Assembly (NCBI GenBank): GCA_963699545.1
Contig: CAVOUE010000003.1
Location: 839,118-903,117 of the forward strand
Origin: Nitrospirota bacterium
GTDB taxonomy: Bacteria; Nitrospirota; Thermodesulfovibrionia; Thermodesulfovibrionales; UBA9159
Direction: 5' to 3'
Length of the DNA: 64,000 nt
The notes under the pieces: generated by a model
What the model was told of the DNA's origin: nothing
The model's input: only the letters and a program-made list of their open reading frames with translations
Database searches by the model: none
Position numbers and translations under genes: made by a program
Shown here: piece after piece, positions 17,598-35,502 of the stretch
How positions within the stretch are numbered: the first letter of the stretch is position 1
Layout of the letters: every line of letters starts with the position of its first letter

Positions 17598-17635
17598 GAA
17601 CGGAGTAGCGCTGTGCCCTTCTTCGCAGGTCCTCC

Positions 17636-18346: not shown

Positions 18347-18454
18347 TACGGAGGTGGGTAGTGCCGGAGGTCATGAGGCATGAACTCGGGGTGATAGCAC
18401 AACGACTCTCTGAGGTGACCCGGTCAGACCAGGAATGACAAAGCCGTCAGTCCT

Positions 18455-19296
18455 TCAGAAGGTTTTTTTTGCGGACCCTCTCTTTCTTCTTCGAACCGGG
18501 GTCGTATCTCCCTTTTTAAATAACTGGTTGTATGTCACCGGGTCATGCTTTTTCAAACAGTCGGGACATATGCCGTGGGTAAAGGAAGCATCGGAATGCT
18601 CCTGGATGTACATCTCGACCTTTTTCCAATAACCCCCGTCATCGCGTATCTTCTTGCACCACGCGCACATGGGAAGCAAACCGGTCAGCGTTTTGATCCT
18701 CGCCACCGCTTCCCGAAGTTGCAGGATCAGCATTTCTTTTCCCTGTTCGATCCGTTTGCGTTCGGCAATGTCCTGCCGGAGCTGGTCGTTCACCCGGCGG
18801 AGCTCGGCGGTGCGTTCCAATACAAGGTTCTCCAGGTGTTCGCGGTCTCTGTTCAGTTCTTCCTCCGCCTGCTTTCGCTCGGTAATATCGTGCCAGATAG
18901 TTTGAAAGACCTTTTGGCCTGACAGGTCCGTCACCGGGCAATGACAAACACATGTCGTATCTCCCCCGATTTGGTTCTGTGCCTCACTTCGAACTCTGCC
19001 CTCCCGTGACGCAATACTTCTCTGATGCTGGCCTGTATATCTTCAGGGCTCTGGAAAGGGTCGATGTCGGAAATGCTCAGCTTTTCGAATTCCTCCCGAG
19101 AGTAACCGAGCTGGCGATGGGCCGCTTCATTGAATTCAATCAACCTTCCATCGGTACTTATGATCAAAATGCCGTCAGGGGACTGCTCAAATATGGTGTG
19201 GTACCGGTGTTCCGTTTCGAGGAGTTTGGTGTCGGAATCGCCTCTTCCCCTCTTCCGTCCTATTCCCTTGTCCCTATGCTTTCTGTCCGATTCCAT
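18455..19296 (-). CDS. PAS-domain protein with coiled coil and C-terminal Cys motif domain (frameshift near 18935)
   Basis: PAS (IFEQSPDGI..FNEAAHRQLGYSREE..DITERK), then GLLPMCAWCKKIRDD..HGICPDC. Confidence 0.78.
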
Positions 19297-19497
19297 GTCG
19301 CAGTATGTCCGTCGAGTTCTCAGTCGAAGTCGTCTTCCGAGGAATTCGGCGGTAGCCGCCGAAAGAACCTCTACTTACATTGTCTCTTGCGCAAGCGTTC
19401 TTGTCAACTGCGGAGGAGGCAATAAAGTGTTCTATCGTTGCAGCTTTTCTCCTTCATTTCTGTGCTATCATAAAAGGAAAACGAAGGTGAAATAATC

Positions 19498-20091
19498 ATG
19501 TCAGAGAAAGAAAAACCGTTGCCAAAACCTCCGAAGACGCCCTTTGGAAGAAAGCGTTCTGAGGAAAGGGAAGAGGGCGCCCCGCTTATGGCTGACAGGA
19601 TGGCCGCAGCGATGGCAGAGGGAAAACTGGCAGAGTTCATGAAGGAGGAGATGCCCGATAATGACTACGCCAGGGCCCTTGCCTCGATGATGATGGGAAT
19701 TACCGGCATGATGCCGCCTGAGGCCTTTCCTCCCCGTTCCGGGGAAAGACCGGAAGAGTGTTCTGACAGGGCCGAAGACGTGAACCCGCCGGAGGTGATG
19801 CCTTCCGGCGTTCAGCCTCCGGCGGATGTGATGGATGCTGCTCACACAGGTGACGTAAAAGGCGTTATGGAGATGCTTGCCAGGGAACATGAGAAGAGGA
19901 ATCCGGGATCAGGATCGATCCCCGCGGAAAAGGAAGGAACGGATGATATGCCCGGACTCAGTGACGTTGAGAAGGAGACCCTGAACCAGCTCTTGAAGAT
20001 TGCATCTGAAAACAACGTGAGTGTGGACTGGATGGTGTTAAGGGCCCTCAGCCTCTACATCCGTGAGTATCACAACACAGGGCGGCTCTGA
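19498..20091 (+). CDS. Hypothetical protein
   Basis: 197-aa ORF; the C-terminus may be ribbon-helix-helix-like. Confidence 0.65.
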   Translation: MSEKEKPLPKPPKTPFGRKRSEEREEGAPLMADRMAAAMAEGKLAEFMKEEMPDNDYARALASMMMGITGMMPPEAFPPRSGERPEECSDRAEDVNPPEVMPSGVQPPADVMDAAHTGDVKGVMEMLAREHEKRNPGSGSIPAEKEGTDDMPGLSDVEKETLNQLLKIASENNVSVDWMVLRALSLYIREYHNTGRL

Positions 20092-20215
20092 GAATTCCGC
20101 CTCGATCCGTTACTTGATCACCGCCACTGGCCCAGTCAATCGTTTCGTTTTCAGAGTGTCATCCTTTCACGCCAACGGACATTCGGCTGCCGAGATCACA
20201 CATCGATCACAGTTT

Positions 20216-20587
20216 TCAATCGGTTCGGTCCCGATTGTGTTCGCCTCGTGCATCAGACTTTGAGTCGGGTGGCAAGTGATAGGCCACAAAGAATAACCCA
20301 AAGGATACTAAAATGGTAATACAGGCTACCGTCAATGCGAGTGATGTTCCACGCCATAGCCCGGCAAACCAATGACTAAGCTCATTCGCAAGCACGCTCA
20401 CCTTTCCGCCGTAGAGTTCCAGATCATGTACATACTTCTTGGAATGCTCAAATTCATAAACCAGATCGCTGTCTGAAGCATTCCCGGCTGTCAGATAAAT
20501 CAAGATGGCGCTTCCCAAACCAACCAGCAGGACAATAGCAGTAATGAGGTAAAGGCGTGTTTGCAGCTTTGTGATGTTCCACTTCAT
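20216..20587 (-). CDS. Small two-TM membrane protein
   Basis: Two hydrophobic segments flanking SKKYVHDLELYGGK. Confidence 0.65.
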   Translation of the reverse strand: MKWNITKLQTRLYLITAIVLLVGLGSAILIYLTAGNASDSDLVYEFEHSKKYVHDLELYGGKVSVLANELSHWFAGLWRGTSLALTVACITILVSFGLFFVAYHLPPDSKSDARGEHNRDRTD

Positions 20588-20898
20588 GTTGTGCCTATTC
20601 TTACTCCCTCGTCAAACCCGGTTGCCCGGGAGCTTTACGGTTCCCTTATGCCGACATTGTGTCACGGTTTTTCATTGTACCATACATCACGGTTCATCAC
20701 ATCACAGGTACAGACCAGGGAAGAAAGGAAAGACCGGCCCTCATTCCGTCATCACGGGCAATTACTCGTCAGCCCTGGCCAGGGACATTGTCAGACGGGA
20801 CCTGACAGGTTCGCTGGAAGGCGGGGTGTGGAAAAAGGCCTGCCAGTTCTGTTATCATAGAGTTGCTAAACATCTAACATGTGAGGTGAGGTTCGAAT

Positions 20899-21078
20899 AT
20901 GGCATTCATAAAAAGTGTAATGAATTTCTTTTCTCTTGAAGAGGAGAAGCGGCCGGTGCAGGACCTGGGAAGAAATGAGCCCTGCTGGTGCGGAAGCAGC
21001 AGAAAATACAAGCACTGCCATCTCCACGAAGACCAGAAGAGGCTGAAGAATTACTCGGCAGACTGCCTGAATGGGTGA
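20899..21078 (+). CDS. Small SEC-C (Zn-binding) motif protein, 59 aa, absent from the ORF track
   Basis: [71 protein letters not shown]. Confidence 0.8.
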
Positions 21079-21125
21079 AAGACCCGTTGAGTTGAGTTCA
21101 ACTCAGGGATAAGGACAAAGCGTTC

Positions 21126-21959
21126 TCAAAAGCCTAGGTCCTTCAACTTTTCCAGGCTGTTTTCGTCATAGTGCTCTCTTTTCCACTTGAAAGGGACGTC
21201 GATGATCTCCCCGGGTGTTTTTATGAAATAGAGAGCGCTAAAAGCCTCAGCCAGTACCGCCCTCTGCTGGGCGATATTGAACGGTTCTCCCAGCGGATGT
21301 CCGAAAGGCCACCTGAGATAAATCGTCCTGGGCGGTTTCACCTTCTCGGTATATTCCCTGACTATGGATATCCCAATAGTGGGGATGCCCATTCCCTCGA
21401 TCACTCTCTGTATCAGTCCGACGGCCTGATTGCACGTGCCTCAGCCCGGCGTCATTAACACCACATCAACACCCTCTGCCTTGAGGCGTTTGGCAACCTT
21501 CGGGGCGGTATCGGCGACGAGGGTCTGGAGCCGGGGACCCAGTATGTGGCCCATGAATCCGTAATGGGTATGTGATAGTGTGCCGATGATCCCTTCGCCT
21601 TGAAACTCCCTGAGTCTTTCAAGCGGGAACACGATATTCATATCCCTGTCTGCATCGCCATGATCATAATAGTCGTGCGTGATCATGAGGTCGTTCGGCG
21701 GTCTTGTGCCATCGATCACCCTGAAGGTGGCATCTCCGTTGGGATCTCTCATGTCAAAAGGCGTTTGATCCTTCTGATGCACTCCGGCAGTAGTGACCAG
21801 CGCCACCGAACATTTACGCAGGGGTTTACTCACCGGTGTCCAGGGGATCTCCTTTGATTCCGCGGGACGGTATGAAGCGATAAAGAGCTCTGCGAGGAGG
21901 GGGAAACGGGTAAGGACCTTTGCCAGGAGCCTGTTCTTTAATCGTGAAATCTCTGTCAC
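21126..21959 (-). CDS. GrdB/PrdB-related reductase selenoprotein (Sec at TGA 21441-21443)
   Basis: The two listed ORFs are in frame across TPG-TGA-GTC (UxxC); family motifs VALVTTAGVH, HDYYD, NIVFP and CNQAVGLIQR..E..GIPT..PPR...PFGHPLG. Confidence 0.88.
21412..21430 (-). promoter_or_regulatory. Candidate bacterial SECIS
   Basis: ATCAG-GCCGTCGGA-CTGAT stem-loop starting 11 nt after the UGA, with G in the apical loop. Confidence 0.6.
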
Positions 21960-21984
21960 CGGCAGCCACGGGACATGGGCATTT

Positions 21985-22191
21985 CTACCATGTCAATGAG
22001 AGGAGATGCGCCACGTCCGACTGTAAACGGTTGAACTTGCATTTGACCACCATGCACTGCTCCGAACGATAGCACGTGCCGCACTTAATGATCACATGGA
22101 CACTTATGCCCGTACTTTCGCGGTGAGGGCAGGGGATATGGAGTTTCCCGGTGTCTTCAGAATAACGCTTGTCCAGATAGGCGCTTTTCAT
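21985..22191 (-). CDS. Small Cys-rich hypothetical protein
   Basis: 68 aa with CPH and CxxC..C..C, directly upstream of the selenoprotein gene. Confidence 0.5.
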   Translation of the reverse strand: MKSAYLDKRYSEDTGKLHIPCPHRESTGISVHVIIKCGTCYRSEQCMVVKCKFNRLQSDVAHLLSLTW

Positions 22192-22426
22192 GGTTTATTA
22201 TACACCGAATGGGGTCTTATTAAGGACGTCCAAATTTCCACGTCCCGTCACATTTCCGGCGCGGAAGAAGGGTATATCCGGTGTTCTAAGAATGAAAAGA
22301 CGACTTGACCTGTCATCGGCAAACGCAAGAATTCTTCGATGGAAGCGTACAAACATGGAACAGTTTCCCCTTTCTGTCCTCTTCACCATTCATGCTATGC
22401 TATAGTGAAAGAAAAATAGAGGGAGT

Positions 22427-23386
22427 GTGGGGTTTGACGAAATTATGAAACTCAGGATAGGGCATCTCTCCACCTTTTACCATACTTCAATCTTGTTAAT
22501 GGCAAAGGGAGACGCCGGCAAAAAACTTGGAGTCGATGTCGAGTGGGAGTTGTTCGGCACAGGTCCCGCAATTGTGGAAGCCTTTGAAAGAGGCAAGCTT
22601 GACCTCGCTTACATTGGATTGCCGCCGGCCATCATAGGGATAAGCAGGGGAATGAGCATTATATGCATTGCGGGGGGACATATAGAAGGAACAGTAATTG
22701 CCGGGGAAAGAGAGTTGATCAGCTATCAGGAAGAAGAAGACATACGGATTATCCTCGATCAACTCACAGGAAAGTGCATAGGAGTGCCGGGGAAGGGTTC
22801 GATACACGACGTGATCATAAGGGAATGCCTTGAAAGATTGAATCTCACGGAAGGGATAGAGATAGTGAATTTTCAGTGGGCTGACCAGGTGACAGAGGCG
22901 GTGGCGAAGGGAGAAGTCTCCGCTGCAGTCGGCACTCCTGCCTTGGCCGTGGCAGTTGAACGCTATGCCGCTGGTAAGATCCTCTATCCCGCGTCAAGGC
23001 TCTGGCCCCACAACCCCAGCTACGGAATTGTCGTAGACAAAAGGTTTTTGACCGAGGAGAGGGAAACGGTCGAGCGCTTTCTCGTTCTCCATGAAGAGGC
23101 GACTTCCCTGATCAGGAACAGGCCGGGAGAGGTGGCGAGGACGATCGCCCGTTATGTCGGGTTCATCGATGAAGAGTTTGTGATGGATACCCTGAAGGTG
23201 TCTCCAAAATACTGTGCCCAGATCACCGACGAGTATATTTCTTCGACGATGGAATTTGTGAAGGCGCTGAAACGGCTGGGATACATACGCAGAGACATCG
23301 GTTCCGACGGCATTTTTGATACCCTTTTGATCAGACGACTTCATCCTGAGAAAGACCACTACGGAGACGGCATCGCAGAGGCTTAA
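22427..23386 (+). CDS. SsuA/NrtA/THI5-like periplasmic-binding-fold protein without signal peptide
   Basis: LRIGHLSTFYH, FGTGPAIVEAF..LDLAYIGLPP, GVPGKGSIHDV; no hydrophobic N-terminus. Confidence 0.8.
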   Translation: MGFDEIMKLRIGHLSTFYHTSILLMAKGDAGKKLGVDVEWELFGTGPAIVEAFERGKLDLAYIGLPPAIIGISRGMSIICIAGGHIEGTVIAGERELISYQEEEDIRIILDQLTGKCIGVPGKGSIHDVIIRECLERLNLTEGIEIVNFQWADQVTEAVAKGEVSAAVGTPALAVAVERYAAGKILYPASRLWPHNPSYGIVVDKRFLTEERETVERFLVLHEEATSLIRNRPGEVARTIARYVGFIDEEFVMDTLKVSPKYCAQITDEYISSTMEFVKALKRLGYIRRDIGSDGIFDTLLIRRLHPEKDHYGDGIAEA

Positions 23387-24525
23387 CCGCGCATGAGGAA
23401 CTCTTGCACCTGTCTTTTTATCTCCAGATGGTGCAGGGGAATATTCGGCACATCCTTGTTTCCCGGAACAGCGAGGACATGGACAAATCTGACCCCCTCG
23501 TCTGAACTTTTCATTACATCCGTCAACCCTTTCTCATCAGCCACTTTGATGGTATTCTTTATCCCGAATCCCGTCGCCACAGCCGCAAGGTCAACACATG
23601 ATTTTGTAAGTGTGGGCTGGTTTCCTGTTGAGCCGTAGGAACCGTTATCTATTGCAAAGACGGTGAGATTTCCGGGCGAGAAATGTGCAGCAGTAGCAAG
23701 GCTCCCAGGATTCATCAAGAGGCTCCCGTCACCATCTATTGCAATAACGTGCTTTCTTGATGTCAGCGCGATCCCGAGTCCGATGGGGGTAACCATGCCC
23801 ATGCTGCCCAGCATATAAAAGTTGGACGGCTGGTGTTTGATATGGAAGAGTTCTTTTGAAGGGGCGCCAAGATTGCATACAACCACTTTGGAATCAAGAT
23901 AAGGGGCTATGATATTCAGAATCTCGAAGCGTGTCAGCCGCGGCGAATGCGTCCGGTGCCCGATAGGTGCTTCATATTCAATTCTTTCTTTGGTGCCTTT
24001 TGTTCTGACTGAGGACTGCTGAACGCTGACTTCCGATTTTTCCCATATCGCGGGGCTGAGGAGAAATGCGTGGATCCGGTTCTTCTTGTAAACGTCTTCA
24101 AGTCTCTTCCCTACAAGCCCGAAATCCTTCCGTGTGTTGACGGCTGTATGGTGTATGCCGGCGCCATCTAAAATACCAGGGAGTTTCTTGCCCATGGGTA
24201 TCTGGGCTCCGATTTTCTCTTTATATATGCCTCTGCGGCTGACAAACAAGGCGAGGGGCAGCCGGTAAAATCCTGTGAGGGAAAGTAATGCATTGATCAT
24301 ATTCCCGACGCCTGAACTCTGGACGAACATTGCGGGCCGTCTGCCGGATAATGCAGCGCCTGCAGTGATGCCGACACCCTCTTCTTCCCGGGTCAAAGGC
24401 ACATGAAAAAACTCTTCGCTCACCCGTTCGAGAAGGACTTTGATCTTCTCGCAGGGAAGGGAAGAAATAAAGTCGACCCCGTTCTTCTTAAGCAGTGCTA
24501 TCAGCTCTTCTTCAGGGTATTGCAT
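23383..24525 (-). CDS. comDE: Fused sulfopyruvate decarboxylase alpha+beta
   Basis: ComD half (SLPC, LTREEEGVGITAGA, QSSGVGNMINAL, RGIYKEKIGAQIPMG) fused to ComE half (NLGAPSKEL, NFYMLGSMG, TPP motif DGDGSLLMN, DNGSYGSTGNQPT). Confidence 0.88.
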   Translation of the reverse strand: MQYPEEELIALLKKNGVDFISSLPCEKIKVLLERVSEEFFHVPLTREEEGVGITAGAALSGRRPAMFVQSSGVGNMINALLSLTGFYRLPLALFVSRRGIYKEKIGAQIPMGKKLPGILDGAGIHHTAVNTRKDFGLVGKRLEDVYKKNRIHAFLLSPAIWEKSEVSVQQSSVRTKGTKERIEYEAPIGHRTHSPRLTRFEILNIIAPYLDSKVVVCNLGAPSKELFHIKHQPSNFYMLGSMGMVTPIGLGIALTSRKHVIAIDGDGSLLMNPGSLATAAHFSPGNLTVFAIDNGSYGSTGNQPTLTKSCVDLAAVATGFGIKNTIKVADEKGLTDVMKSSDEGVRFVHVLAVPGNKDVPNIPLHHLEIKRQVQEFLMRG

Positions 24526-25757
24526 AGTAACCCCTCTATCTCCTTCTCCGAAATCTTTTTTGATATGGCAAGGGGCTCCACAGTATACATTTCCCTCTTC
24601 TGTTTCAGTCTCTTTTCGCCACCTCCGGTGATATTGAGTAATATCGTGTCGCTCTTCTGTACCGTGCCCGTGTGCACGGCATTTATGAGGGCTGCGGATG
24701 CAACCCCGGCTGCAGGTACGATATCTATCCCCTCCGCCCTTTCGAAGATCTCCATTGCAGAATACACCTCCTCATTTCTTATGCCATACATTTTTCCCCC
24801 TGTTGCCTTGAGGGCGTCATAGACGCCACCGCCGAGGGAATAGGCAGGATAGCGGGTCGAAAGAACCCTGGTGGTTATCTCTCCTATCAGTTCAGGTTTC
24901 AGATCCTCAGGAGAGAGGTTCCGGCTGCCTTTCTCCCACGCCCTGAGCATGGGAGCAAAAGGCAGGTTCTGAGCGAGGTGAAGGACCGGCAATTCAGTAC
25001 CAAATCTTCCGTCCCTTATAAACCTTTCCGCCATCTCCCATACCCCTATCGCTCCGGTACCGCTCCCCACGGCCTGGAAATAGTGGTCAGGAAGTCTCGC
25101 CATTACCGAGACAGCTTCAAGGAGTACCACTCCAAGACCATCTCTCTTTGCAATATTCTTCACCCCTCCCTCAAAGGGGATGCCGAGGGTTGAGGAGATT
25201 CTCTTTGCGACATCGATGGAGTCTGCGTAATCGCCGTCGCTTAACGCAAGGGTTGGTATCCCGGGAGAATTTTCGAGGCACCACATTTCCACAAGACACA
25301 TCCTCGGAACAACAATGACCACCGGAAAATCAGAGAGGACGGAGAGGTGGGAAAATGCCCTCGCGGTATTGCCAGCTGACGCCACGACGAGTCCATGGAC
25401 ACCGTTTTCTCTTGCGTTCTGGAGCACCACCGCTGCCTCAAATTCCTTGAAGGTGCACGTCTGAAGCGATGCCCCCTTTTCCGGCCAATAGCCATTAAAG
25501 GCTATGAAAAGGTTCTCGAGACCGAGCTGTTGAGAGAGACCTGTTGATCGGTAAACCAAAGGACCTGATTGTTCAAAGCGCGGGGTATGTACCGGGAGCC
25601 AGTTAAATCTCCAAATACCCCGGGTATCGCTTTCAGTAAAAGTGATATCGTTATATTCTGTTATGAGGAGCGAATCCTTGCAGTGTTCGCAAAAGGCACA
25701 GTACACATCCTCAAGCCTTTTCCCGCAATTCCTGCATCGTATCGAAAAATGGCTCAC
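24501..25757 (-). CDS. Cysteate synthase (PLP, threonine-synthase-like, MA3297 type)
   Basis: N-terminal CxxC..CxxC, FNGYWPEKGA..TCTFKEFEA, SAGNTARAF, EGGVKNIAKRDG, DHYFQAVGSGTG, QNLPFAPM, VLSTRYPAYS; overlaps comDE. Confidence 0.9.
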   Translation of the reverse strand: MSHFSIRCRNCGKRLEDVYCAFCEHCKDSLLITEYNDITFTESDTRGIWRFNWLPVHTPRFEQSGPLVYRSTGLSQQLGLENLFIAFNGYWPEKGASLQTCTFKEFEAAVVLQNARENGVHGLVVASAGNTARAFSHLSVLSDFPVVIVVPRMCLVEMWCLENSPGIPTLALSDGDYADSIDVAKRISSTLGIPFEGGVKNIAKRDGLGVVLLEAVSVMARLPDHYFQAVGSGTGAIGVWEMAERFIRDGRFGTELPVLHLAQNLPFAPMLRAWEKGSRNLSPEDLKPELIGEITTRVLSTRYPAYSLGGGVYDALKATGGKMYGIRNEEVYSAMEIFERAEGIDIVPAAGVASAALINAVHTGTVQKSDTILLNITGGGEKRLKQKREMYTVEPLAISKKISEKEIEGLLCNTLKKS

Positions 25758-25767
25758 ATTGCCTCCT

Positions 25768-26971
25768 TCAGATGAGGCTCCCCAACAATTCCATGATGTC
25801 GGTGATTACTACCTGCTTATCATGCCCCTGCATCGCTTCGTTTACCTTGGAATAGCATGCAGGACAGCTCAGGATAAGCCTGTCTGCCTTTTTCTCCACT
25901 GCCTCATCAATGGTCAGCCTTCCCATGGCGGTGGCATTTTCGGCGAAGACCTTTCTTGCTGCGCCGCCGGCGCCGCAGCATTGTGAATTGAGGCCGTGCC
26001 TTTCAAATTCGATGAGTTCAGCGCCGGGTATGCTTCTGAGGACGATCCTCGGCTCTTCAATCACCCCCACCCCTCTGCTCAGATAGCAGGGGTCGTGGTA
26101 GATTAAATTTTCTTTCAGCTCCTTCTTAATGACGAGTTTTCTTTTCTTCAGTGCATCGACGACAAATTGTGTAATATGCGCTATCTTGAAAGGGAGCGCC
26201 TGCCCATAAAATAGCGGCCAGTCCCTTGACATAATATTCACGCAGCATGGGCATGAACTTATGAGCAGTTTCACCCCCTTTGCCTTGTATGCATTCACGA
26301 GCCTCTTGGTAAGATCCTCAAGCATATCATGCTGCCCTGTGATGAAGAGAGGGAATCCGCAGCATACTTCTTCCTCCGGAGGAAGCATGGTGAATGGTTC
26401 GCCGATTGCGCCCAGCACAAGCACATCACCTTTCACCATGGGCTGGGCTTCATAGGCTCCGGTGCAGCCGGCGTAGTATGCGATCTCAGCTTTTTCAACG
26501 ATCTTGACCTCATCGGGAAACCAGGGGCTGTATCGCTCTTTGTCCGGCTTGTTATAGGGATTTCCCGTTCTCCTTTATCACCTTGGGAAGATTTGCCTGC
26601 GGACCGATCGGCCCGAGCCCCATGTCCACCATCTTTTTTCTCAGGAAAGGCCAGAGCCTTTGACTGAAGATCCCCACCTCGCAGGCCTCTCCGCAGGCCC
26701 CGCATGTGGTGCATTCAAAAACTGCCTTCGCGAACTCCTCAAGCAACTGTCTGCTTACTTCACCAGGACCGAAAAGGCGTGCCTTGAGCCCTTCCGTATT
26801 CTTGATAAAATCTCGATACATCCTGATTTTTTCAGGTGGCGAGATCTTCCGATTTTCCGTGACTTCCTGAACGGGACACCATTTGAGACACTCACTGCAT
26901 CGCGTGCATGCATCGAGTTCTATAAGATGAAGCTTCGTCAGCCCTTCGATAAAGGATTGTTGTTTACCCAT
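25768..26971 (-). CDS. hdrD: Heterodisulfide reductase subunit D-like Fe-S protein (frameshift near 26560)
   Basis: Two CxxCxxCxxxC motifs (ELDACTRCSECLKWCP; CTTCGACGEAC), then two CCG domains (YAGC..CCG..SCPCC; HDPCYL..CCGAGG..SCPAC). Confidence 0.85.
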
Positions 26972-27773
26972 GGGTAAACTCCCAGAGACTTGATTTTCTT
27001 CTCGATGCTTCTGCTGTAGTAATCTGGGCGGTGAACATATGGAACTGCTTGGAAAAGGGGAGATAGGCGATAAAGGTAAAGGCAGAAAAGGCATGAAATG
27101 CCCAGAAAATCCTGTAGAGAAGTCGGGATGAAGGATAGCTTCGGGTCACGGGACTGAACATCTGAGAAAAGAGAGCGCCTACAGGCGACCAGTCCATCAG
27201 CGGCGGATGAAACCGTGCGAGACGGATTCCCTCAACGCAGAATCCGCTGAGGATTATGAGAAACATCAGAATAAGGACAAAAGCATCGTCCCAGCTCGAG
27301 ACAACAATATTCCTGGAAAATACATATCGCCTCAGGATATAAAACAAGAGACTTATTAAGGCCAGGCCACCTGCGATGTCCAGTACGAGGGAATAATAGA
27401 GATAGAAATGTCCTCTCAATATATGGAGACCAAAGTCATAATCAATGGCAACGAGAAGCGTCCCAATAAAGAGGATAATAAATCCCCAGTAGACGAATAT
27501 AAGCATGACTCCTCTGGGTCTGCTTTTCTCCATGACCCTCCGGGCAAAGAGACATTCCATCGAGAAGAGATAGAGGAGGCTTATCCTTATAAGCCCCCAT
27601 ATCGATTTCTTAGGGATATAGTCAGAAGGGTCATCCCTGCCTTTAAGCCAGATGGATACTTTCGACCATGAACCTATGAGAAAGATCGCGACCGCTATTG
27701 CGGCTGCCCCGTAAAAGAGTATCCTCAGGAGTGAAGGGATATCCCCGAAAACTAATCTTGTCGCTTCTCCCAT
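26964..27773 (-). CDS. NarI/HdrE-like membrane cytochrome b anchor
   Basis: 5-6 TM segments; ILSGFCVEGIR, WSPVG, FHAFSAF..IAYLPFSKQFHMF; its stop overlaps the hdrD start. Confidence 0.75.
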   Translation of the reverse strand: MGEATRLVFGDIPSLLRILFYGAAAIAVAIFLIGSWSKVSIWLKGRDDPSDYIPKKSIWGLIRISLLYLFSMECLFARRVMEKSRPRGVMLIFVYWGFIILFIGTLLVAIDYDFGLHILRGHFYLYYSLVLDIAGGLALISLLFYILRRYVFSRNIVVSSWDDAFVLILMFLIILSGFCVEGIRLARFHPPLMDWSPVGALFSQMFSPVTRSYPSSRLLYRIFWAFHAFSAFTFIAYLPFSKQFHMFTAQITTAEASRRKSSLWEFTHG

Positions 27774-27811
27774 GTGCTTTCTCCTCTCTCATGAACGAAT
27801 TGATCGTCTGC

Positions 27812-28156
27812 TTATTCCTTTTCGCTGCTCTTGCTTATCTTTCTGCTCTCCAGAAATGTGACGCTCACATCTTTGGGGACAGCAAAGCCTGCCTCCACCT
27901 CCATGGCCTTGAGGATGCCGCTGGGCACAGGACAGGTCACATGTTTCAGGTGCTTCGATGCCGAACGGTAGACGGGATTATCGAGAAACCTTGTGAATAC
28001 CGCCATCATATCGAGGGCAGCGATCTCATCAGCCATGTTTTTCACCATCTCGCATTCTGTCTCAAGGGAGATCAGGATTTTTTTGTCCTTGTCCCTCTCG
28101 GCAGTTACGGTCGTTGAGAATCCGCACACCCCTGAATGGATAAGCACCTTTGTCAT
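27812..28156 (-). CDS. Conserved small Cys/His protein (DUF6951-like)
   Basis: GVCGF..C..HVTCPVPSGILKAMEVEAG. Confidence 0.7.
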   Translation of the reverse strand: MTKVLIHSGVCGFSTTVTAERDKDKKILISLETECEMVKNMADEIAALDMMAVFTRFLDNPVYRSASKHLKHVTCPVPSGILKAMEVEAGFAVPKDVSVTFLESRKISKSSEKE

Positions 28157-28198
28157 TCTTCACTCCTTTTTATCGACGCGCAGAGCCCCGTCACGCCC

Positions 28199-29007
28199 TC
28201 AGACCTCGGAAAGTTGATGCACATGGGTGAACATGCCGTTCACGCTCCTTGTCTTTTCCCTCTCCCCGGCAAGGAACAGGAGTATCTCCTTTCTTATGGA
28301 ATTCAGTTCAGGGCTTGTCCTGTCCCTGGGATGGGGAATATCCACCGTAATTACCTTCCCGACCTCTGCCGGGCGTGAGGTGAGACAGATGATCTCATCC
28401 CCGAGGAATACCGCCTCTTCCACGTTATGGGTCACAAAGACCACGGTCTTCTTCGCCTTCGCCCATATCTGAAGAAGAGCCGTTTGCATGTAATTCCTCG
28501 TCTGGCAGTCCAGTGAGACAAAGGGTTCGTCCATGAGAAGGACCTTCGGTTCCACCACCAGTGCCATGGCCATGGCCACCTTCTGTTTCATACCCCCGGA
28601 GAGCTCCTTTGGATAAAAGTCTCCCGAAGTCCTGGAGTTCTACCAGTTCCAGGCCGGCAAGGGCCTTCTGTTCTCCGCTGCTCTTTAGGGATGCCTGCGA
28701 CCTCAAGGCCGAACTCAACGTTTCTTATCACGGTCCGCCACGGCAGGAGGGCCGGCTCCTGGAAGATATATCCGACCTCCCTCACCGGTTCGGCAATCTC
28801 CTTGTCCCCCAGGAGGATCTTTCCCCTGTCGGGCCTTTCAAGCCCCGAGATTATTCTCAACAGTGTCGTTTTGCCGCACCCGCTCGGACCGATGATGCAG
28901 ACAAATCTCCCCTCTGGCACAGTGAACGACACATCCGTAATCGTATCGATCCGTTCACCCTCTGAGGCGTTGAAGGCTTTATGGAGATCAATCACTTTCA
29001 GGTCCAT
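28199..29007 (-). CDS. Sulfonate/nitrate/taurine-type ABC ATPase, frameshifted near 28600-28670
   Basis: GPSGCGKTT, FQEPALLPWRTV, ELSGGMKQK, LMDEPF, FVTHNVEEA. Confidence 0.88.
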
Positions 29008-29011
29008 AGGG

Positions 29012-29779
29012 TCATCTCCACCTGAGGACCCTGTCTTCGATCTTCCTTATGGCGAGGTCCATTGTATAGCCGATCCCTCCGATCACCGCCATACCCGCGA
29101 TGATCTGATCGGGCCGCTGAATATCTCTTGCAGTCATGATCATATACCCGAGGCCATATCCGCTCCTTACCCCTGTGAATTCTGCGGCAACAAGGGTCAT
29201 CCATCCGATTCCCAGGGCGATGCGTATCCCCGTGATGATGGAGGGCATTGCCCCCGGCGTGAGGACCTTCATAAAGAGGACTCCCCTCTTTGCGCCGAGG
29301 ATGATGGACGACTCAATAAGCCTTTTATTGATGGACAAAACCCCTCCGATGGTATTCAGGAGGATGGGGAAGAAGGCACCGAGGAAGATGATGAAGGAAG
29401 AGGCTTTGTCCCCGATGCCGAACCAGAGAATTGCAATGGGAACCCATGCAAGGGGAGGTACGGGCCGTATCATCTCAACAAAGGGGGTGAGGTAATCCCT
29501 CGCTTTCGCCCAGTACCCCATCATCATGCCGAGGGGCAGGGCGGTAACAAAAGCTATGGCCACCCCGCTCAACACTCTTTTCAGGCTCGAGATGCAGTGG
29601 CCGGTAAGGGTATATCCTGGAGGAAGGCCCTCCGTAGTCAGTTCTGTGAACCCATGAAGTATCGTCACCGGAGACGGCAGCCTGTTGCCGGGGATGATGC
29701 CGGAGGAAGAGAGTATCTGCCACACGACCACAACCCCAAAGACCGGGAGGTACCTTAAGGACCTATATGCGCGGCGCAA
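29012..29779 (-). CDS. Sulfonate/taurine-type ABC permease
   Basis: RPVPPLAWVP..LWFGIG, WMTLVAAE..GLGYMI. Confidence 0.92.
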   Translation of the reverse strand: MRRAYRSLRYLPVFGVVVVWQILSSSGIIPGNRLPSPVTILHGFTELTTEGLPPGYTLTGHCISSLKRVLSGVAIAFVTALPLGMMMGYWAKARDYLTPFVEMIRPVPPLAWVPIAILWFGIGDKASSFIIFLGAFFPILLNTIGGVLSINKRLIESSIILGAKRGVLFMKVLTPGAMPSIITGIRIALGIGWMTLVAAEFTGVRSGYGLGYMIMTARDIQRPDQIIAGMAVIGGIGYTMDLAIRKIEDRVLRWR

Positions 29780-29826
29780 TCTTCTTTCTCTCCCTCTACA
29801 CGTTTTAAAGGAAAGCCCGTGGAACG

Positions 29827-30783
29827 TTATTTCGTGAGATCGTTCACTACCTTCATGTCCAGGTATTCCCGGACAAAGGCATCCACGTCCATGGGCTTCA
29901 CATATCCGAACTTCACAAGATATTTCACGTATTCCTTTACATCGCCTTCCTTAGCAAGATAGTGGTAGGAGATGTGTCTGATGGCCTCCCGTACCGTTGC
30001 CTCGTCCATCCCGGTATATTTTATCCCGATGCGGAGGGCCTCGCCGGGGTTTTTCCTGATGTACTCGGTGGCTTTCACGTGGGCCCTTACAAAACGCTTG
30101 ACCGTCTCCGGATTATCCCGGAGGAAGGCGTTATCCACCGCAACAACACAGCAGGGATGGTCCTTCCATATCATGCCTGAAGAGACCAGGACCTTTCCGA
30201 TGCCCATGTTCACCGCCTTTGACGGATGGGGTTCCCACGCGATGAAAGCATCTATCTGTTTCGAACCAAGAGCGACAATCATTTCAGGCGGCTTAATCAC
30301 GATGATGTTCACCTTCCTGGGATCGACCCCTGCCCCCTCCAGCGCCTTTCTGAGAAGAAAGTCCTGAACACTCGAATATCCCGGGATGGCAACGGTCCTC
30401 CCCTCGAGGTCTTTCACCTCTCGTATGGATGCATCCTTACCCACCACGACGGAGGAGCCCTCCGCATTGGCGAGGGCAACCGCCTTTATGGCGGCGGACC
30501 TGTTCGCAAGTCCCGTGGCGCTGGGGGCAACACCAAGGTATCCCATATCGAGGCTTTTTGAGGCAAAGCCGATCATTTCTTCAGGGCCGGCATTGAAGAT
30601 GCCGGCAACTTCAACATCGACCCCTTCCTCTTTGAAAAAGCCCTTGTCAATGGCGACCCATGCCGCGAGGTGGTGGAGGTCGTTCCGCAGATAACCGATA
30701 CGGACCGTCTTGGACGCTGCCAGGGATATCAGCGCACTCACAAGCATCAAGACAAGTAAGACCCCCAAAACAATCCTTTTCAT
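29827..30783 (-). CDS. Sulfonate/nitrate-type ABC substrate-binding protein
   Basis: Signal peptide, VRIGYL, FNAGPE, DAFIAWEP, HPCCVV. Confidence 0.9.
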   Translation of the reverse strand: MKRIVLGVLLVLMLVSALISLAASKTVRIGYLRNDLHHLAAWVAIDKGFFKEEGVDVEVAGIFNAGPEEMIGFASKSLDMGYLGVAPSATGLANRSAAIKAVALANAEGSSVVVGKDASIREVKDLEGRTVAIPGYSSVQDFLLRKALEGAGVDPRKVNIIVIKPPEMIVALGSKQIDAFIAWEPHPSKAVNMGIGKVLVSSGMIWKDHPCCVVAVDNAFLRDNPETVKRFVRAHVKATEYIRKNPGEALRIGIKYTGMDEATVREAIRHISYHYLAKEGDVKEYVKYLVKFGYVKPMDVDAFVREYLDMKVVNDLTK

Positions 30784-30866
30784 GTACTCTCTCCTCTTCA
30801 ATACAGGTCGCGGACTTTCGGCGGAAAGCATCCTTCTTTCTCTTCCCCGAGTCCTGCCACTGATTT

Positions 30867-30875
30867 ATTATACCA
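30867..30875 (-). promoter_or_regulatory. Candidate extended -10 promoter
   Basis: TGGTATAAT on the minus strand in the gap before the ABC binding-protein gene; no clear -35. Confidence 0.45.
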
Positions 30876-30883
30876 CTGACATC

Positions 30884-32857
30884 CTACGCCTTTATTTCCA
30901 CCTTGCTCCCAGACTTTTCGAGGAGTTCCTTCAGGTTCGGGAACTTGTCCTTCATATGGGGGATATGCATTGCCTGCATGAATTCCTTCTCAAAAGCAGG
31001 GTCAGTGGCGATTTCAAGAAATTCCACCCACCGCGCCCTGTCACCGGCTTCCTGTCTCTTGCCCCTGTTGAGGAGGGCCATCCTCGCGCCGTCCCCCGCC
31101 GCATTGCCCACGGCATATACCTTGTCGATGGGACAATCGGGGAACATCCCTAGGGTCATGGAAGCTTCCCTGTCGATGTGGCTCCCGAAGGCGCCTGCAA
31201 GGACGACCCTGTCAAGCTTTGTGATCCCCAGCTTCTTCATCATCAGCTTCGCTCCGGTGTAGAGCGCGCCCTTAGCCAGTTGGAGCGCCCTCACATCCCC
31301 CTGAGTGACGGTGATGTCAGTTCCGATGGAGGTCTCTTCAGCCCAGGCGAGGACGTACTCCGGTTTTCCGTCAACGTCCTTCCGGACCCTCGGGGTATCA
31401 AGCCCCATCATGAATCTCCCTGACTTGTCGATGATCCCCGCCTTGAACATCTCAGCCACCACTCCGATGATCCCTGAACCGCATAACCCCTTCGCGTTCA
31501 CCTTCTCGATCTGGGTGTGCCAGTCCGCCTTGCCGATCACTTTGTACAACGGCTCTTTCGTGACGGGGTCGATCTGGACCTTCTCGATGGCCCCGGGTGC
31601 GGCCCTCATGCCGAATTTTATCTGGGCTCCTTCAAAGGCAGGGCCTGTGGCGCAGGAGGTGGAGAAGACCTTGTTCCTGTTGCCGAGGAGGAGTTCACCG
31701 TTTGTGCCGATATCGATGATCAGCACCATCTCGTCCTGATTATACGGCTCCTCGGCGATGAGTACGCCTACGTTGTCCGCACCCACGAAACCTGCCTCGA
31801 TGGGAAGCACATGGATATAGGCTGCGGGGTTGATCCTTAATCCGAGGTCCCGCGCTTTGATGTCCAGTGAGCTCTGCACGGCCGGAATGAACGGTGAGCG
31901 TCCTATATACTCGGGATTGAAGCCGAGGAATATGTGGTGCATGGCGGTATTGAAAACGATGGTGAGGTCATCGATCGCGAAGCCTGGATTCGGTCCGTCC
32001 TCCTTAATCTCTGTTACTACCTTTTCTATGATCTCGTTCAGGCCACCTATGATCGCCTTCTGCATGGTTTCGAGGCCTGTCGGATTGCTCATTGCATACG
32101 TTATTCGGGACATAACGTCCTCACCGTAGGGCACCTGGGGGTTCATCATCGACTCGGTATTCATAACCTTGCCGATAGTGAGATCGGAGAGATAGCCAAC
32201 GCACGTCGTGGTTCCGACGTCTACCGCAAGGCCATAGCATGCCTCCACAAAACCGGGCTCCACCTTTATGATCTCCTTGTCCATCCAGACCGTGACCGTG
32301 GCTTTCCATTGCCCCTTCCTCAGCACATCCTGAAGATCTCTCAGCACCATGAAGTCAAAGGTGAGGTTCTTGAGACCGTAGTCATTCTCAAGGAATTTCA
32401 ATACCCTTTCGTAGTCCCCTGTGGTCATGTCATGGAGCGTGGGGGGGGCGAGTTCCACGTTATATTTCTTCACCGCAGGGTCCAGGGTTATGGTAAGCTC
32501 CTTTGCGGCCTTCCTCACCACCTGTTTCCCGGCCCTCGACCGTTCGGGGACAAAGACCTTTACATCACCGTATACCTCCGCTGTGCAGGCAAGCCGGACC
32601 CCCGGGCCGTCTTCAGGCTTTATATGTTTTTTTTCGTCTTCTGTGAGGTCAGAGAGATGGTCCATGCCGGACTCCATTCCGTCTTTCTCAAAATATCCTT
32701 CCTCGATCCTCACCTTGCACTTTCCGCAGACCTTCTTGTTGCCGCAGAGGGCCTCGATATCAACACCCAGAGACTGGGCGGCCTCGAGGAGGGTCTTGCC
32801 TTCTTCGACCTCGCCCCGCCTTCCTGACGGCTGAAATATCACCCTGTATTTTTTCAT
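30884..32857 (-). CDS. RACo-type ASKHA ATPase, reductive activator of corrinoid proteins
   Basis: Intact paralogue of 3779-5722 with 2Fe-2S N-terminus, DVGTTT, GEDVMSRI, DIGTNGE, GPAFEG, GNAAGDGA. Confidence 0.93.
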   Translation of the reverse strand: MKKYRVIFQPSGRRGEVEEGKTLLEAAQSLGVDIEALCGNKKVCGKCKVRIEEGYFEKDGMESGMDHLSDLTEDEKKHIKPEDGPGVRLACTAEVYGDVKVFVPERSRAGKQVVRKAAKELTITLDPAVKKYNVELAPPTLHDMTTGDYERVLKFLENDYGLKNLTFDFMVLRDLQDVLRKGQWKATVTVWMDKEIIKVEPGFVEACYGLAVDVGTTTCVGYLSDLTIGKVMNTESMMNPQVPYGEDVMSRITYAMSNPTGLETMQKAIIGGLNEIIEKVVTEIKEDGPNPGFAIDDLTIVFNTAMHHIFLGFNPEYIGRSPFIPAVQSSLDIKARDLGLRINPAAYIHVLPIEAGFVGADNVGVLIAEEPYNQDEMVLIIDIGTNGELLLGNRNKVFSTSCATGPAFEGAQIKFGMRAAPGAIEKVQIDPVTKEPLYKVIGKADWHTQIEKVNAKGLCGSGIIGVVAEMFKAGIIDKSGRFMMGLDTPRVRKDVDGKPEYVLAWAEETSIGTDITVTQGDVRALQLAKGALYTGAKLMMKKLGITKLDRVVLAGAFGSHIDREASMTLGMFPDCPIDKVYAVGNAAGDGARMALLNRGKRQEAGDRARWVEFLEIATDPAFEKEFMQAMHIPHMKDKFPNLKELLEKSGSKVEIKA

Positions 32858-33060
32858 CTCATTTCCTCCGAATGTATAATAATTAACAGATATGTATTAC
32901 GTCTTCTGCAATGAAAAACTCCCCCTTTGGAAAGGGTCGGTATGACCCGGTTACGAGGGAATGAAAGGGAATGTTTCGATCATGCAATTTCCCCTAACCC
33001 CTTACCCTGGCCTCGGATTCTCCGGACGAAAAAGAGGGGTGATCCCTGCTCATTGAGAGG

Positions 33061-33729
33061 CTATCCCGTCTTAACAAAAGATTTCTCCTGATCTTCCCGG
33101 TATACTTTCCTCCCGTAGGGACAGATGGTAATGCAGAGACCGCAGTTGGGTTTGCCGTGCAGTGCCCTGATCTTCTTCTTGTGGGACGCGCATTTGTCAA
33201 GCTGAATGAGTTCAGGGAACGGTTCATGCCTTGACCACTGTTCCCCTGTTATGGCGTCCGAAGGACAGAACTCCATGCACAACCCGCAGTTACCGCAGAG
33301 ACTGTGCTCTATGGGGATGCCGGCCTGAAGGGGCGCATCGGTGAGGATCGTGGCAAGGGAGAGCCTCGGACCGAAGTCCGGGTTAATGAGAAGTCCGTTC
33401 TTGCCTATCCAGCCAAGCCCTGCAGAGGTTGCGGCCATCTTGTGGGTGAAGAAGGGATAGAGTTTCGATACGAAGGTGTTCCGTATCCTGTCGGAATCAG
33501 GGGGAATGCACAGGTACCGGTATCCAGCCTTCCGCAGAATTTCGGCGGTCTTCTTCTGGAGGCCGATGAGCAGGCTTACCGTGTCCTCGTTGAGGTTCCT
33601 GTCCACACCAATCGAAACAGCCCTTTCGAGGTGGGCTATATCCTCATGCAGGGCAGCCTTCAGACATGCGACACCCACCACCGCCGCCCCTGAACGAAGG
33701 AGCTCTTTTTTGATCGTTCCCTCCATCAC
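33061..33729 (-). CDS. QueG/RdhA-like 2x[4Fe-4S] protein
   Basis: THKMAATSAGLGWIGKNGLLINPDFGPRL, CGNCGLCMEFCP, CGLCITICP. Confidence 0.82.
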   Translation of the reverse strand: MMEGTIKKELLRSGAAVVGVACLKAALHEDIAHLERAVSIGVDRNLNEDTVSLLIGLQKKTAEILRKAGYRYLCIPPDSDRIRNTFVSKLYPFFTHKMAATSAGLGWIGKNGLLINPDFGPRLSLATILTDAPLQAGIPIEHSLCGNCGLCMEFCPSDAITGEQWSRHEPFPELIQLDKCASHKKKIRALHGKPNCGLCITICPYGRKVYREDQEKSFVKTG

Positions 33730-34418
33730 TTTCTCTTCTTTGCTTCAGCCTCTTCCTTGAGTTTCTTCAGAGAGCTGATCATGTTGATGGCGTCTTTCAG
33801 GGCGTTGTTGGCGTCTTTCGCATATCCGTCCGCCCCCCATTTCTCTGCGATATCCGCGGATACGGGCGCTCCACCGATCATGATCTTGACGTTCGGATTT
33901 TTCTCGTGGAGGTTGTCGATGACCTTCTTCATTCCGGTCATCGTCGTCGTCATCATCGCCGAGAGACAGACGAGGTCGGAGGCGGTCTTCATCTGTTCCT
34001 CAACGAACTTATCGAGAGGCACGTCACGCCCGAGGTCGTATACGGTGAAGCCCGCCACGTCAAACATCATCTTCACGATGTTCTTGCCGATGTCATGGAC
34101 ATCACCTTCCACTGTTCCGATGACAACGGAGCCCTTCACGCCGAGGTCAAGCTGCACCACATGAGGCTTCAGGATATCGAGACCCGCATAGAGGGCATCG
34201 GCGCACATGAGGAGTTCGGGTACGAAATACTCCTGTGCCTCGAAGAGCCTTCCCACCTCTTCCATGCCGCTCACGAGGCCGTTGAAGATCGCTTCGTTGG
34301 CATCCATCCCCACATCAAGGACTTCCTGGGATGCTTCCTTTGCGGCGTCTTCGTCGTATTGGATCACCGCATTTCTCAGTCTTTCCAAAAGCTCCTTTTT
34401 CTTTTCGTCCGTTGCCAT
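33726..34418 (-). CDS. Methyltransferase cognate corrinoid protein
   Basis: EYFVPELL, GDVHDIGKN, LGRDVP, LSAMMTTT, IGGAP. Confidence 0.95.
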   Translation of the reverse strand: MATDEKKKELLERLRNAVIQYDEDAAKEASQEVLDVGMDANEAIFNGLVSGMEEVGRLFEAQEYFVPELLMCADALYAGLDILKPHVVQLDLGVKGSVVIGTVEGDVHDIGKNIVKMMFDVAGFTVYDLGRDVPLDKFVEEQMKTASDLVCLSAMMTTTMTGMKKVIDNLHEKNPNVKIMIGGAPVSADIAEKWGADGYAKDANNALKDAINMISSLKKLKEEAEAKKRK

Positions 34419-34423
34419 TTTAT

Positions 34424-35458
34424 CTACCTCCTGTATTTTTTCACTTCATCCATCATCGTTCGTATGTTTTCGGCAGGAACCGTGGGCCAGATGTCACAGC
34501 CGGGCCATACCGCACTGACGCCGTCGTCCATGCATTTCTTCATCGTCTCCTTTACCATTTCAGGGGTTCCCGCTACGAGGACGTTGTAGGGGTCATAGTT
34601 CCCGAAGATGAGGGCGTCCTTGCCAAGCTTCTTGCGGGATTCTGCAACGTCATTTTTCTGGTCAACGCTAATGGCCTTGGCGCCGGTCTCTATCATGAAG
34701 GGAACGATGTCGTTTGTCTTTCCGCAGATGTGGAGAACGCTGGGAACCGTCAACCTGTCAACGATCTTTTTGATGTAGGGCTGGATCAGATTCTTGAAGA
34801 CCCGTGGACTTAACACATCAGACGTCGCTCCCATCTCCCGCACGGTTATATAATCAGCTCCCGCCTTTTCGAACTGGCCTGCCACCATGACAATGGCATC
34901 CGCAAGGAGATCGAGGAGTTTTCCCACCTTGTCGGGTTTCTTGAAGGAGAGTTTCAGCAGGTCATTGAGTTCCATGATCTGTCCCGCAAGGGTAAAAGGG
35001 CCGAGGACATATGTCCCTATGGGAACGTCTCCCCCGATGTTCTTCTTCATCAATCCGATGGCTTCACACACAAGAGGTATCCTCCCCTTTTCCTGAAAAC
35101 CGGAAGGGATCGAGATATCCATCTCGTCTTCCTTATGGATAAGTTTCTTCTTGATCGTGGGATAAAGAAGGTCTTCGGAATGGGCGTATACATTTATTTC
35201 ACAGCCCAGGGCCTCTGCTTCCACGCAGAGGTCAAAAGGGACCACGCCGCACTCAAACCCGAAGAGCCTGTAGGTTGTGGATGCCGCGCCGGCCATCATC
35301 TTTGCATCAAGGTGCGACGCAGCGAACTTGTACCCGAGGGATTTCAGGCCTTCTGTGGTAACATTCCCCATGCCGCTGAAGCACGGCGGCCTGTCAACCT
35401 CTTCCCTCGCAAAGAGCTTCATTATTCTTTCTTTTGCCGTCACGGTTGTTATGGACAT
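34424..35458 (-). CDS. MtaA/CmuA family methylcobalamin:CoM-type methyltransferase
   Basis: VPFDLCVEAEALG, GPFTLA, Zn motif LHICG...WPGCD. Confidence 0.88.
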   Translation of the reverse strand: MSITTVTAKERIMKLFAREEVDRPPCFSGMGNVTTEGLKSLGYKFAASHLDAKMMAGAASTTYRLFGFECGVVPFDLCVEAEALGCEINVYAHSEDLLYPTIKKKLIHKEDEMDISIPSGFQEKGRIPLVCEAIGLMKKNIGGDVPIGTYVLGPFTLAGQIMELNDLLKLSFKKPDKVGKLLDLLADAIVMVAGQFEKAGADYITVREMGATSDVLSPRVFKNLIQPYIKKIVDRLTVPSVLHICGKTNDIVPFMIETGAKAISVDQKNDVAESRKKLGKDALIFGNYDPYNVLVAGTPEMVKETMKKCMDDGVSAVWPGCDIWPTVPAENIRTMMDEVKKYRR

Positions 35459-35502
35459 TACTCCTCCTTCATAATCGTTTTAGTGGCGCTCATTTCACGC
35501 CG

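Follow-up and report, generated by a model that had tools for sequence, protein, structure and literature searches.

A stretch of 64,000 nucleotides (nt) from a sulfate-reducing Nitrospirota bacterium of the Thermodesulfovibrionia (contig CAVOUE010000003.1, positions 839,118 to 903,117; the whole stretch is called the window here, and positions are counted within it) contains two overlapping genes for an HdrD-like iron-sulfur protein and a membrane anchor, which we interpret, with moderate confidence, as encoding a membrane-bound, quinol-linked oxidoreductase of the HdrDE type that would act on a coenzyme M (CoM)-type thiol or disulfide. HdrDE is the methanophenazine-dependent reductase of the heterodisulfide of CoM and coenzyme B (CoM-S-S-CoB) in Methanosarcinales, and both this enzyme and the cysteate synthase route to CoM are regarded as hallmarks of Methanosarcinales-type methanogens. 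In the present case, an HdrD of the Methanosarcinales-type lineage is locked to cysteate synthase, the sulfopyruvate decarboxylase ComDE, and MtaA-type methyltransferases in bacteria that do not make methane. What was observed comprises family placement, motifs, synteny, and co-occurrence; the cluster was not described in the literature searched. The two genes are the following:

25768..26971, minus strand: HdrD-like iron-sulfur protein, present as two open reading frames (ORFs; 26552..26971 and 25768..26574) that give 400 amino acids (aa) when read through
26964..27773, minus strand: HdrE/NarI-like membrane anchor of "type A," 269 aa (PF02665)

The gene order, with the anchor preceding the HdrD-like gene, and the overlap of the two genes are those of HdrDE, e.g., of the real Methanosarcina-type hdrED pair in the metagenome locus L130. 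The TAA stop codon of the anchor gene overlaps the ATG of the HdrD-like gene (26971) by 8 nt, and the spacer between the stop codon of the latter and the GTG of the cysteate synthase gene (25757) is 10 nt long (AGGAGGCAAT) and contains AGGAGG. A gap of this length had been given in a first interpretation made from the letters and ORFs of the window (the sequence-only reading), and its coordinates and spacing were right. Comparisons were based on the 400-aa protein read through the two pieces of the window (P0001) or on an intact relative with 95% identity to it as a proxy (P0002). The protein has the same length and domain order as HdrD, retains all 18 cluster cysteines, and carries no signal peptide. 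Pfam recognizes two CCG stretches (PF02754) and a dicluster Fer4 domain (Fer4_8, Fer4_17). Two CX2CX2CX3CP cubane motifs (C22, C25, C28, C32 and C87, C90, C93, C97) are invariant in an alignment of 33 sequences, in which the 10 cysteines of the CCG motifs are invariant or at least 90% conserved (motif 1, C169, C203/C204, C240, C243; motif 2, C295, C331/C332, C369, C372). Both CCG motifs are complete and are predicted to hold the two non-cubane [4Fe-4S] clusters at which Hdr enzymes split the disulfide. The alignment of P0002 with HdrD of Methanosarcina thermophila extends over 397 aa (39% identity, E = 2e-103, 300 bits) and spans the N-terminal motifs, where the window reads LIELDACTRCSECLKWCP, GLKARLFGP, and CTTCGACGEACEVGI and the M. 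thermophila protein LMELDACVRCGECVKWCP, GLKARLFGP, and CTTCGICSTVCEAGI. The N-terminal match to Methanosarcina HdrD given in the sequence-only reading is thereby borne out. An AlphaFold2 model of the HdrD-like protein (predicted local distance difference test score, 86) had EtfD (9OJN; template modeling [TM] score, 0.77), LutA, and HdrB as its best folds.

By its sequence, the protein is assigned to the HdrD type and not to DsrK, GlpC, or GlcF. No NCBIfam model reached its cut-off on the HdrD-like pieces of the window. For the CCG half (the C-terminal piece), the best match to a curated hidden Markov model was TfrB with 151 bits, far below the cut-off of 385, followed by LdhH (114), GlpC (73), DsrK (60), and GlcF (19). 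TfrB is a subunit of the thiol:fumarate reductase of methanogens, which works with CoM and CoB thiols, and it pairs with a flavoprotein, not with a membrane anchor. The DsrK model NF045796 (cut-off, 400) gave 32 and 60 bits for the two pieces of the window and 81 bits for the intact paralogue, versus 737 bits for the true DsrK located elsewhere in the host genome, with which P0002 shares 21% identity. A search of 5.8 billion proteins returned at least 120 homologues, with 73 to 95% identity among the matches listed, and every homologue among them that has an organism name is of the Nitrospirota type. The HdrD-like family appears isolated in a library clustered at 50% identity, where one representative at 71% is followed by full-length ones at 48, 42, 40, 39, and 38%, and these belong to Desulfobaccales, a marine group, Asgard archaea, and Methanosarcinales HdrD.

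For the phylogeny, a quick IQ-TREE search was run on 71 rows, i.e., 49 of the 150 representatives, 10 named archaeal HdrD sequences, 6 from Nitrospirota, and 6 from the host genome; ten short representatives had been dropped beforehand, and the named Methanosarcina HdrD sequences came from a second homologue search (query P0133). In this tree, which had a single long DsrK branch as its root and no rows for GlpC, GlcF, or TfrB, the Nitrospirota sequences group together (support, 100) within a 15-row clade (100), which joins the group with the Methanosarcinales HdrD clade (96). The two clades thus stand on a well-supported common branch of 33 rows (Shimodaira-Hasegawa-like approximate likelihood ratio test [SH-aLRT], 98). 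Outside this shared HdrD branch are a Thermincola-type group, which includes another CCG protein of the host, and the "HdrD-like" groups of Methanomassiliicoccales and Desulfobacterales. Since the protein shares its branch with archaeal HdrD, a clustering with DsrK or with GlcF/LutA-type proteins, which the sequence-only reading had named as its refutation, was not seen in this tree without GlcF rows. The sequence-only reading had called the protein an HdrD closely resembling the Methanosarcina enzyme; the HdrD type is supported by the tree and the alignment, but "closely" does not suit the level of identity and a bacterial host without McrA.

The link of the HdrD-like pair to CoM-type genes is much stronger than could be seen from the window alone. 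Unlike hdrDE, the two genes sit in an operon with corrinoid methyltransferase genes and the following two genes downstream:

24501..25757, minus strand: cysteate synthase (TIGR03844, 480.4 bits; cut-off, 324.9)
23383..24525, minus strand: fused sulfopyruvate decarboxylase ComDE (TIGR03845, 178.6 bits, cut-off 147.95; TIGR03846, 221.9 bits, cut-off 221.5)

A set of 56 related loci represents Nitrospirota, Thermodesulfovibrionia, Candidatus Sulfobium, and Dissulfurispiraceae. Across relatives, cysteate synthase is encoded at most 3 kb downstream of the HdrD-like gene in 45 of the 50 loci with room for it, and a DUF6951 gene, which usually adjoins the anchor gene on its upstream side, precedes the HdrD-like gene in 32 of 42 with room. 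When 151 genomes were sampled evenly across the class, with HdrD called at E <= 1e-90 and cysteate synthase over its cut-off, 40 genomes had cysteate synthase and 36 had this HdrD, all of the latter being among the former, and the HdrD-like gene was found in none of the 111 class genomes without cysteate synthase. In 34 of the 36 genomes, the two genes are next to each other on a single contig (exceptions, G076 and G127), and in two of the four genomes with cysteate synthase only, that gene is cut by a contig end. The distribution of the HdrD-like gene is patchy across families and covers about a quarter of the sampled Thermodesulfovibrionia. PF01837 (COG1900), the family that holds MMP16 and L-ASST, was found in none of the 151 class genomes, and TIGR03287 had no match over cut-off in the genome of the window. 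According to PMC12068725, the cluster of Methanosarcina acetivorans consists of the cysteate synthase gene (cs, MA3297), comDE (MA3298), and the gene for MMP16 (MA3299), the CoM synthase. The adjacency of the first and third enzymes of this type 2 CoM pathway (PMC12068725) is thus shared, whereas the conserved neighbor in the Nitrospirota is the HdrDE-like pair and not MMP16.

HdrD copies of the sister clade were found in the same operon in one genome (G002, locus L085) and, in L090 and L094, beside two MtaA-like genes and genes for CMD, OsmC, and CobW GTPase proteins. As a separate observation, L090 (approximately 8341..12924) has HdrD, anchor, and MtaA genes followed, according to Pfam, by the gene of a CobW-type GTPase, after which, judged by eye, come candidate genes for an ATPase of the MoxR type and for a large VWA protein. 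An ATPase and a Ni-binding GTPase are mentioned near archaeal CoM genes in PMC12068725.

The membrane anchor matches PF02665 weakly (26.5 bits against a cut-off of 22.9) and the Methanosarcina-type HdrE of L130 with 28% identity over 177 aa (E = 2e-6), and it resembles HdrE in its similar length, the motif [IL]PFSK..H, and both histidines of the last helix. A single-sequence search against the PDB gave nothing at E values up to 10, and the neighbors of the anchor in the ESM Atlas are PF02665 clusters; a profile of 21 anchors matches NarI of Escherichia coli (E = 5e-6). In the alignment of these anchors, H227 and H245 in the last helix are the only invariant histidines, and they fall on H187 and H205 of NarI. 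Unlike HdrE, the anchor of the window has a leucine (Leu91) at the position of the helix-2 heme histidine; both helix-2 histidines are absent, and it retains two of the four heme histidines of NarI (H56, H66, H187, H205) and two of the three of HdrE. In an AlphaFold3 model of HdrE, H111 of helix 2 pairs with H249 on the proximal heme, according to a preprint (10.64898/2026.08.18.745454). The anchor had been described as cytochrome b/NarI-like and translationally coupled: the overlap supports the coupling, the narrow Pfam match and the profile match support the NarI likeness, and the full set of heme histidines is lacking. The proposed count of heme ligands accordingly yielded both histidines of the last helix and neither of helix 2.

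In relatives, the orthologous HdrD-like genes pair with two anchor types that are homologous to each other (hhalign, 97.6%). Type A (269 aa, two histidines) occurs in 7 of the 56 loci (L009, L010, L011, L015, L043, L063, and L064) and type B (227 aa, four membrane histidines spaced as in NarI) in 30 of the 56 (among L013..L062), while the remaining anchors are ambiguous or truncated. The four-histidine NarI pattern of type B is also that of DsrM.

In the proposed mechanism, the HdrE/NarI-like anchor would connect the cytoplasmic HdrD-like subunit to the menaquinone pool, and electrons would pass from menaquinol via heme(s) b and the two cubane clusters to the non-cubane clusters and finally to a disulfide R-S-S-R'; the reverse direction, with thiols reducing menaquinone, would also be possible. 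Unlike for HdrDE, the likely partner in this bacterial host without McrA would be menaquinone and not methanophenazine. The host genome has two MqnA/D-family genes, which belong to the futalosine route to menaquinone; MenA was not found in this genome, which is 87% complete. The substrate would be a disulfide or a thiol pair containing CoM or a closely related sulfonate thiol that the neighboring genes produce, and it is most likely of CoM type because the gene is fixed upstream of cysteate synthase and ComDE in an operon with MtaA-type Zn-thiol methyltransferases. Heme binding, quinone link, direction, and substrate are inferred. A CoM-type thiol substrate would widen the known range of the CoM cofactor, and the complex would then be a bacterial equivalent of the heterodisulfide loop of methanogens that runs on menaquinone. 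In that case, the lack of MMP16 would also offer a new system in which the final step of CoM synthesis can be tested.

Several points weigh against a quinol-linked oxidoreductase with a CoM-type substrate. Menaquinol (approximately -74 mV) is a poor reductant for thiol disulfides, and the direction of the reaction is therefore not fixed. McrA was not found in the 87% complete host genome, so that the methanogen reaction that makes the heterodisulfide is missing. CoM was never shown in these bacteria within the literature searched, and the CoM-type substrate is suggested by gene context and family likeness; CoM-S-S-CoM or a mixed disulfide, as put forward in the sequence-only reading, would be conjectural candidates. 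As the helix-2 histidine for the proximal heme is absent from the anchor, the heme content is uncertain. The pair lies away from cysteate synthase in 5 of 50 loci and in 2 of 36 genomes, and the related genomes in all of these counts are not independent samples. Finally, two further HdrD and anchor pairs with approximately 41% identity (metagenome contigs L159 and L088) have neither CoM-type nor MtaA or other methyl-transfer genes within 8 kb; L159 is an archaeal contig with TiaS, PCNA, primase, and exosome genes, and its HdrD pair is located among housekeeping genes.

Other functions of the complex have to be weighed against the same observations. Perhaps together with DUF6951, it might perform or complete the last step of CoM synthesis in place of the archaeal MMP16, either by reductive thiolation of sulfoacetaldehyde or by freeing CoM from an intermediate that is a mixed disulfide. 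We know of no Hdr-type enzyme that forms a C-S bond, the sister-clade copies L088, L159, and L090 have no cs or comDE nearby, and in G076 and L009 the pair and cs-comDE are located on different contigs, all of which makes a role in synthesis rather improbable. It gains from the perfect co-occurrence with cysteate synthase (36/36 versus 0/111), from the lack of COG1900 in the 151 genomes and of a TIGR03287 match over cut-off in the window's own genome, and from the fact that these bacteria have the anchor/HdrD pair where M. acetivorans has MMP16 beside cs-comDE (PMC12068725). A dedicated enzyme may not be needed, since sulfide-dependent backup routes to CoM are reported in the same source (PMC12068725), in which the MMP16 deletion mutant of M. 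acetivorans is auxotrophic for CoM when sulfide is lacking. A broader proposal, unlikely but a little less so, is that anaerobic Nitrospirota make CoM or a close sulfonate thiol by the archaeal phosphoserine route without the archaeal CoM synthase, and that the gap is filled by the HdrDE-like complex, perhaps together with the Cys3His protein DUF6951, acting either in the final reductive sulfur step or in a menaquinone-linked CoM-disulfide loop that would tie corrinoid methyl transfer to respiration in an organism that is not a methanogen.

It is similarly doubtful that the pair is an electron-transfer module without a small disulfide substrate, comparable to the HdrDE-related ETF:menaquinone oxidoreductases (EtfD/EMO, e.g., the EMO of S. 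aciditrophicus), which would link the quinone pool to another protein, e.g., DUF6951, the Fer4 protein, or the corrinoid activase. The architecture of HdrC-like, HdrB-like, and NarI-like parts is indeed that of EtfD/EMO (PMC13083937; preprint 10.64898/2026.08.18.745454), EtfD of Mycobacterium smegmatis is the closest solved structure in both sequence and fold (9OJN, E = 5e-24, TM 0.77), the gene lies just downstream of those for DUF6951, a Cys3His protein, and the RACo activase, and EMO enzymes illustrate that disulfide chemistry can be lost (preprint 10.64898/2026.08.18.745454). However, EtfD is a single fused polypeptide, in contrast to the two separate genes of the window, and scores 88 bits compared with 300 bits for Methanosarcina HdrD. 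The first CCG of mycobacterial EtfD is changed to CTG (alignment of 9OJN; PMC13083937), whereas both CCG motifs are complete in the protein of the window, and EMO and HdrDE form distinct clusters in the preprint (10.64898/2026.08.18.745454). General family scans of the cluster genes, which did not include a search directed at electron-transfer flavoproteins, named no such protein. A DsrMK paralogue that serves sulfite reduction by reducing protein-bound sulfur (a trisulfide or disulfide on a DsrC-like protein) is highly improbable, although the combination of a CCG iron-sulfur subunit and a NarI-like membrane subunit is shared with DsrMK/HmeCD, the host has dsr genes, and most relatives use the DsrM/NarI-like type B anchor with four histidines. 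The identity to the DsrK of the host and the 60 to 81 bits with the DsrK model are too low for this assignment, and the distribution follows cysteate synthase in about a quarter of the class genomes and not the whole class. An HdrDE-type oxidoreductase with a CoM-type substrate hence remains the reading that we prefer.

As assembled, the HdrD-like gene is not a single ORF, because its N-terminal part stops at a TAA (26552) and the remainder lies in the +1 frame. The sequence-only reading overlooked this frameshift at approximately 26568, which is located in the following site:

26567..26573, minus strand: extra-A site GGAGAAC with a single surplus A (approximately 26568) in GAGA[A]CGGG, probably an assembly error

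The surplus A probably originated from the assembly, and the gene is read as intact. The window alone reads GAGAACGGG, whereas five of five homologous DNAs read GAGACGGG or a close variant. Contigs from four of four public runs (four studies), which hold relatives at approximately 90 to 99% identity and not the source reads (no run with more than 0.26 of the sampled words), have exactly one indel over 2.1 kb, the base missing at 26568. In the same assembly, rpoC is intact, while rpoB falls into two reading frames, again with GGAGA[A]C as the context of the break; the rpoB break (L069, approximately 1495..1505) reads GGTTCTCC, the reverse complement of GGAGAACC, and the protein requires one base fewer. 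Moreover, two 1-nt insertions in comparison with L019 (approximately 28672 and 28625), the first again at GGAGAAC (28670..28676), interrupt the ATPase gene of the ATP-binding cassette (ABC) transporter that belongs to this operon of the window. The context shared by the insertions in these three genes suggests a context-specific base-calling or assembly error. A global conversion of GGAGAC into GGAGAAC was considered and rejected: GGAGAAC is mildly raised (15 in the window versus 9.3 in relatives) but within the range of shuffled sequences (26 of 100 shuffles reach 15), and there is no depletion of GGAGAC (37 in the window versus 35.8 per 64 kb in relatives), so that only some sites would be affected.

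A genuine frameshift would make this copy a true pseudogene whose function is kept by an intact, 75%-identical copy on another contig of the same bin (C1), and this is very unlikely. The surplus A is indeed absent from all relatives, the bin contains another complete cluster whose HdrD-like gene is intact, and the ABC ATPase gene of the operon is also broken. However, the essential rpoB gene is disrupted at the identical GGAGA[A]C context, and other genes of the assembly are split as well, including those for MtrH, CMD, ComDE, a permease, and sig54 in the C1 copy, which is why the break in the HdrD-like gene is read as an assembly error. Apart from the one base, the gene has no other defect, and it retains the 95% protein identity to the intact relative. 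The apparent pseudogene of the window is therefore most likely an assembly artefact. Two further ORFs in the window may be frameshift artefacts, namely, a RACo-like one (4068..5495, plus strand) in which the 2Fe-2S domain is missing and the ASKHA domain lacks its end and an ABC ATPase one (8750..9325, plus strand) that begins at profile position 46.

The host genome comprises 3.04 Mb on 13 contigs (87% complete, 5% contamination), and its bacterial nature is documented by the small-subunit rRNA (RF00177, 1529 bits). Contig C1 (48.7 kb) of this bin carries a second complete copy of the cluster (approximately 14400..32300; L075, L076), with genes for OsmC, MtaA, MtrH, the corrinoid protein, RACo, the ABC transporter, DUF6951, HdrD, cysteate synthase, and ComDE. 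Its proteins are 50 to 93% identical to those of the window, its HdrD-like gene is intact (75% identity), the G+C contents are similar (0.52 to 0.54), and it carries an inverted extra pair of anchor and CCG genes. The C1 cluster may be a true paralogous copy or may belong to a contig that was binned from a related organism.

The remaining genes of the operon and its surroundings were annotated as follows:

22427..23386, plus strand: SsuA/NMT1-like protein (TIGR01728, 107.7 bits, below the cut-off of 163.5)
27812..28156, minus strand: DUF6951 small protein, 114 aa (PF22263, 117.6 bits)
28199..30831, minus strand: ABC transporter, sulfonate type (Pfam)
28199..29007, minus strand: ABC ATPase (Pfam), broken by two 1-nt insertions
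29012..29779, minus strand: ABC permease (Pfam)
29827..30831, minus strand: ABC binding protein of the NMT1/SsuA type (Pfam)
30884..38173, minus strand, upstream of the HdrD-like pair: corrinoid methyl-transfer genes (Pfam, NCBIfam)
34424..35458, minus strand: NF004889 match, MtaA-family methyltransferase (291 bits; cut-off, 244)
35503..36450, minus strand: NF002142 match (338 bits; cut-off, 287)
36543..37070, minus strand: CMD/AhpD-family protein, part of the conserved operon
38723..39280, minus strand: member of the OsmC-related (seleno)protein family (NF041052, 73 bits, below cut-off), likewise part of the conserved operon

The corrinoid block encodes a RACo/AcsV-type activase, a Fer4 protein, a corrinoid protein, MtaA-family, MtrH-family, and CMD-family proteins, and a second MtaA-like protein. 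The OsmC and CMD/AhpD families are tied to thiol-peroxide chemistry. In most relatives, the DUF6951 gene is located between the genes of the corrinoid activase or the transporter and the anchor gene, and C11, C35, H72, and C75 of the small protein are invariant in an alignment of 32 sequences; this Cys3His set looks like a metal site. The SsuA/NMT1-like gene often adjoins comDE in relatives, on either strand, and a cytoplasmic sulfonate-binding or THI5-like role of its product in the module is possible. By eye, and with no predictor used, this protein (22427..23386) has no obvious signal peptide. Finally, a GrdB-family (PF07355) frame in the window (21126..21959, minus strand) contains one in-frame TGA in the context PG-U-GTC and ends at another TGA, and it probably represents one selenoprotein rather than two ORFs.

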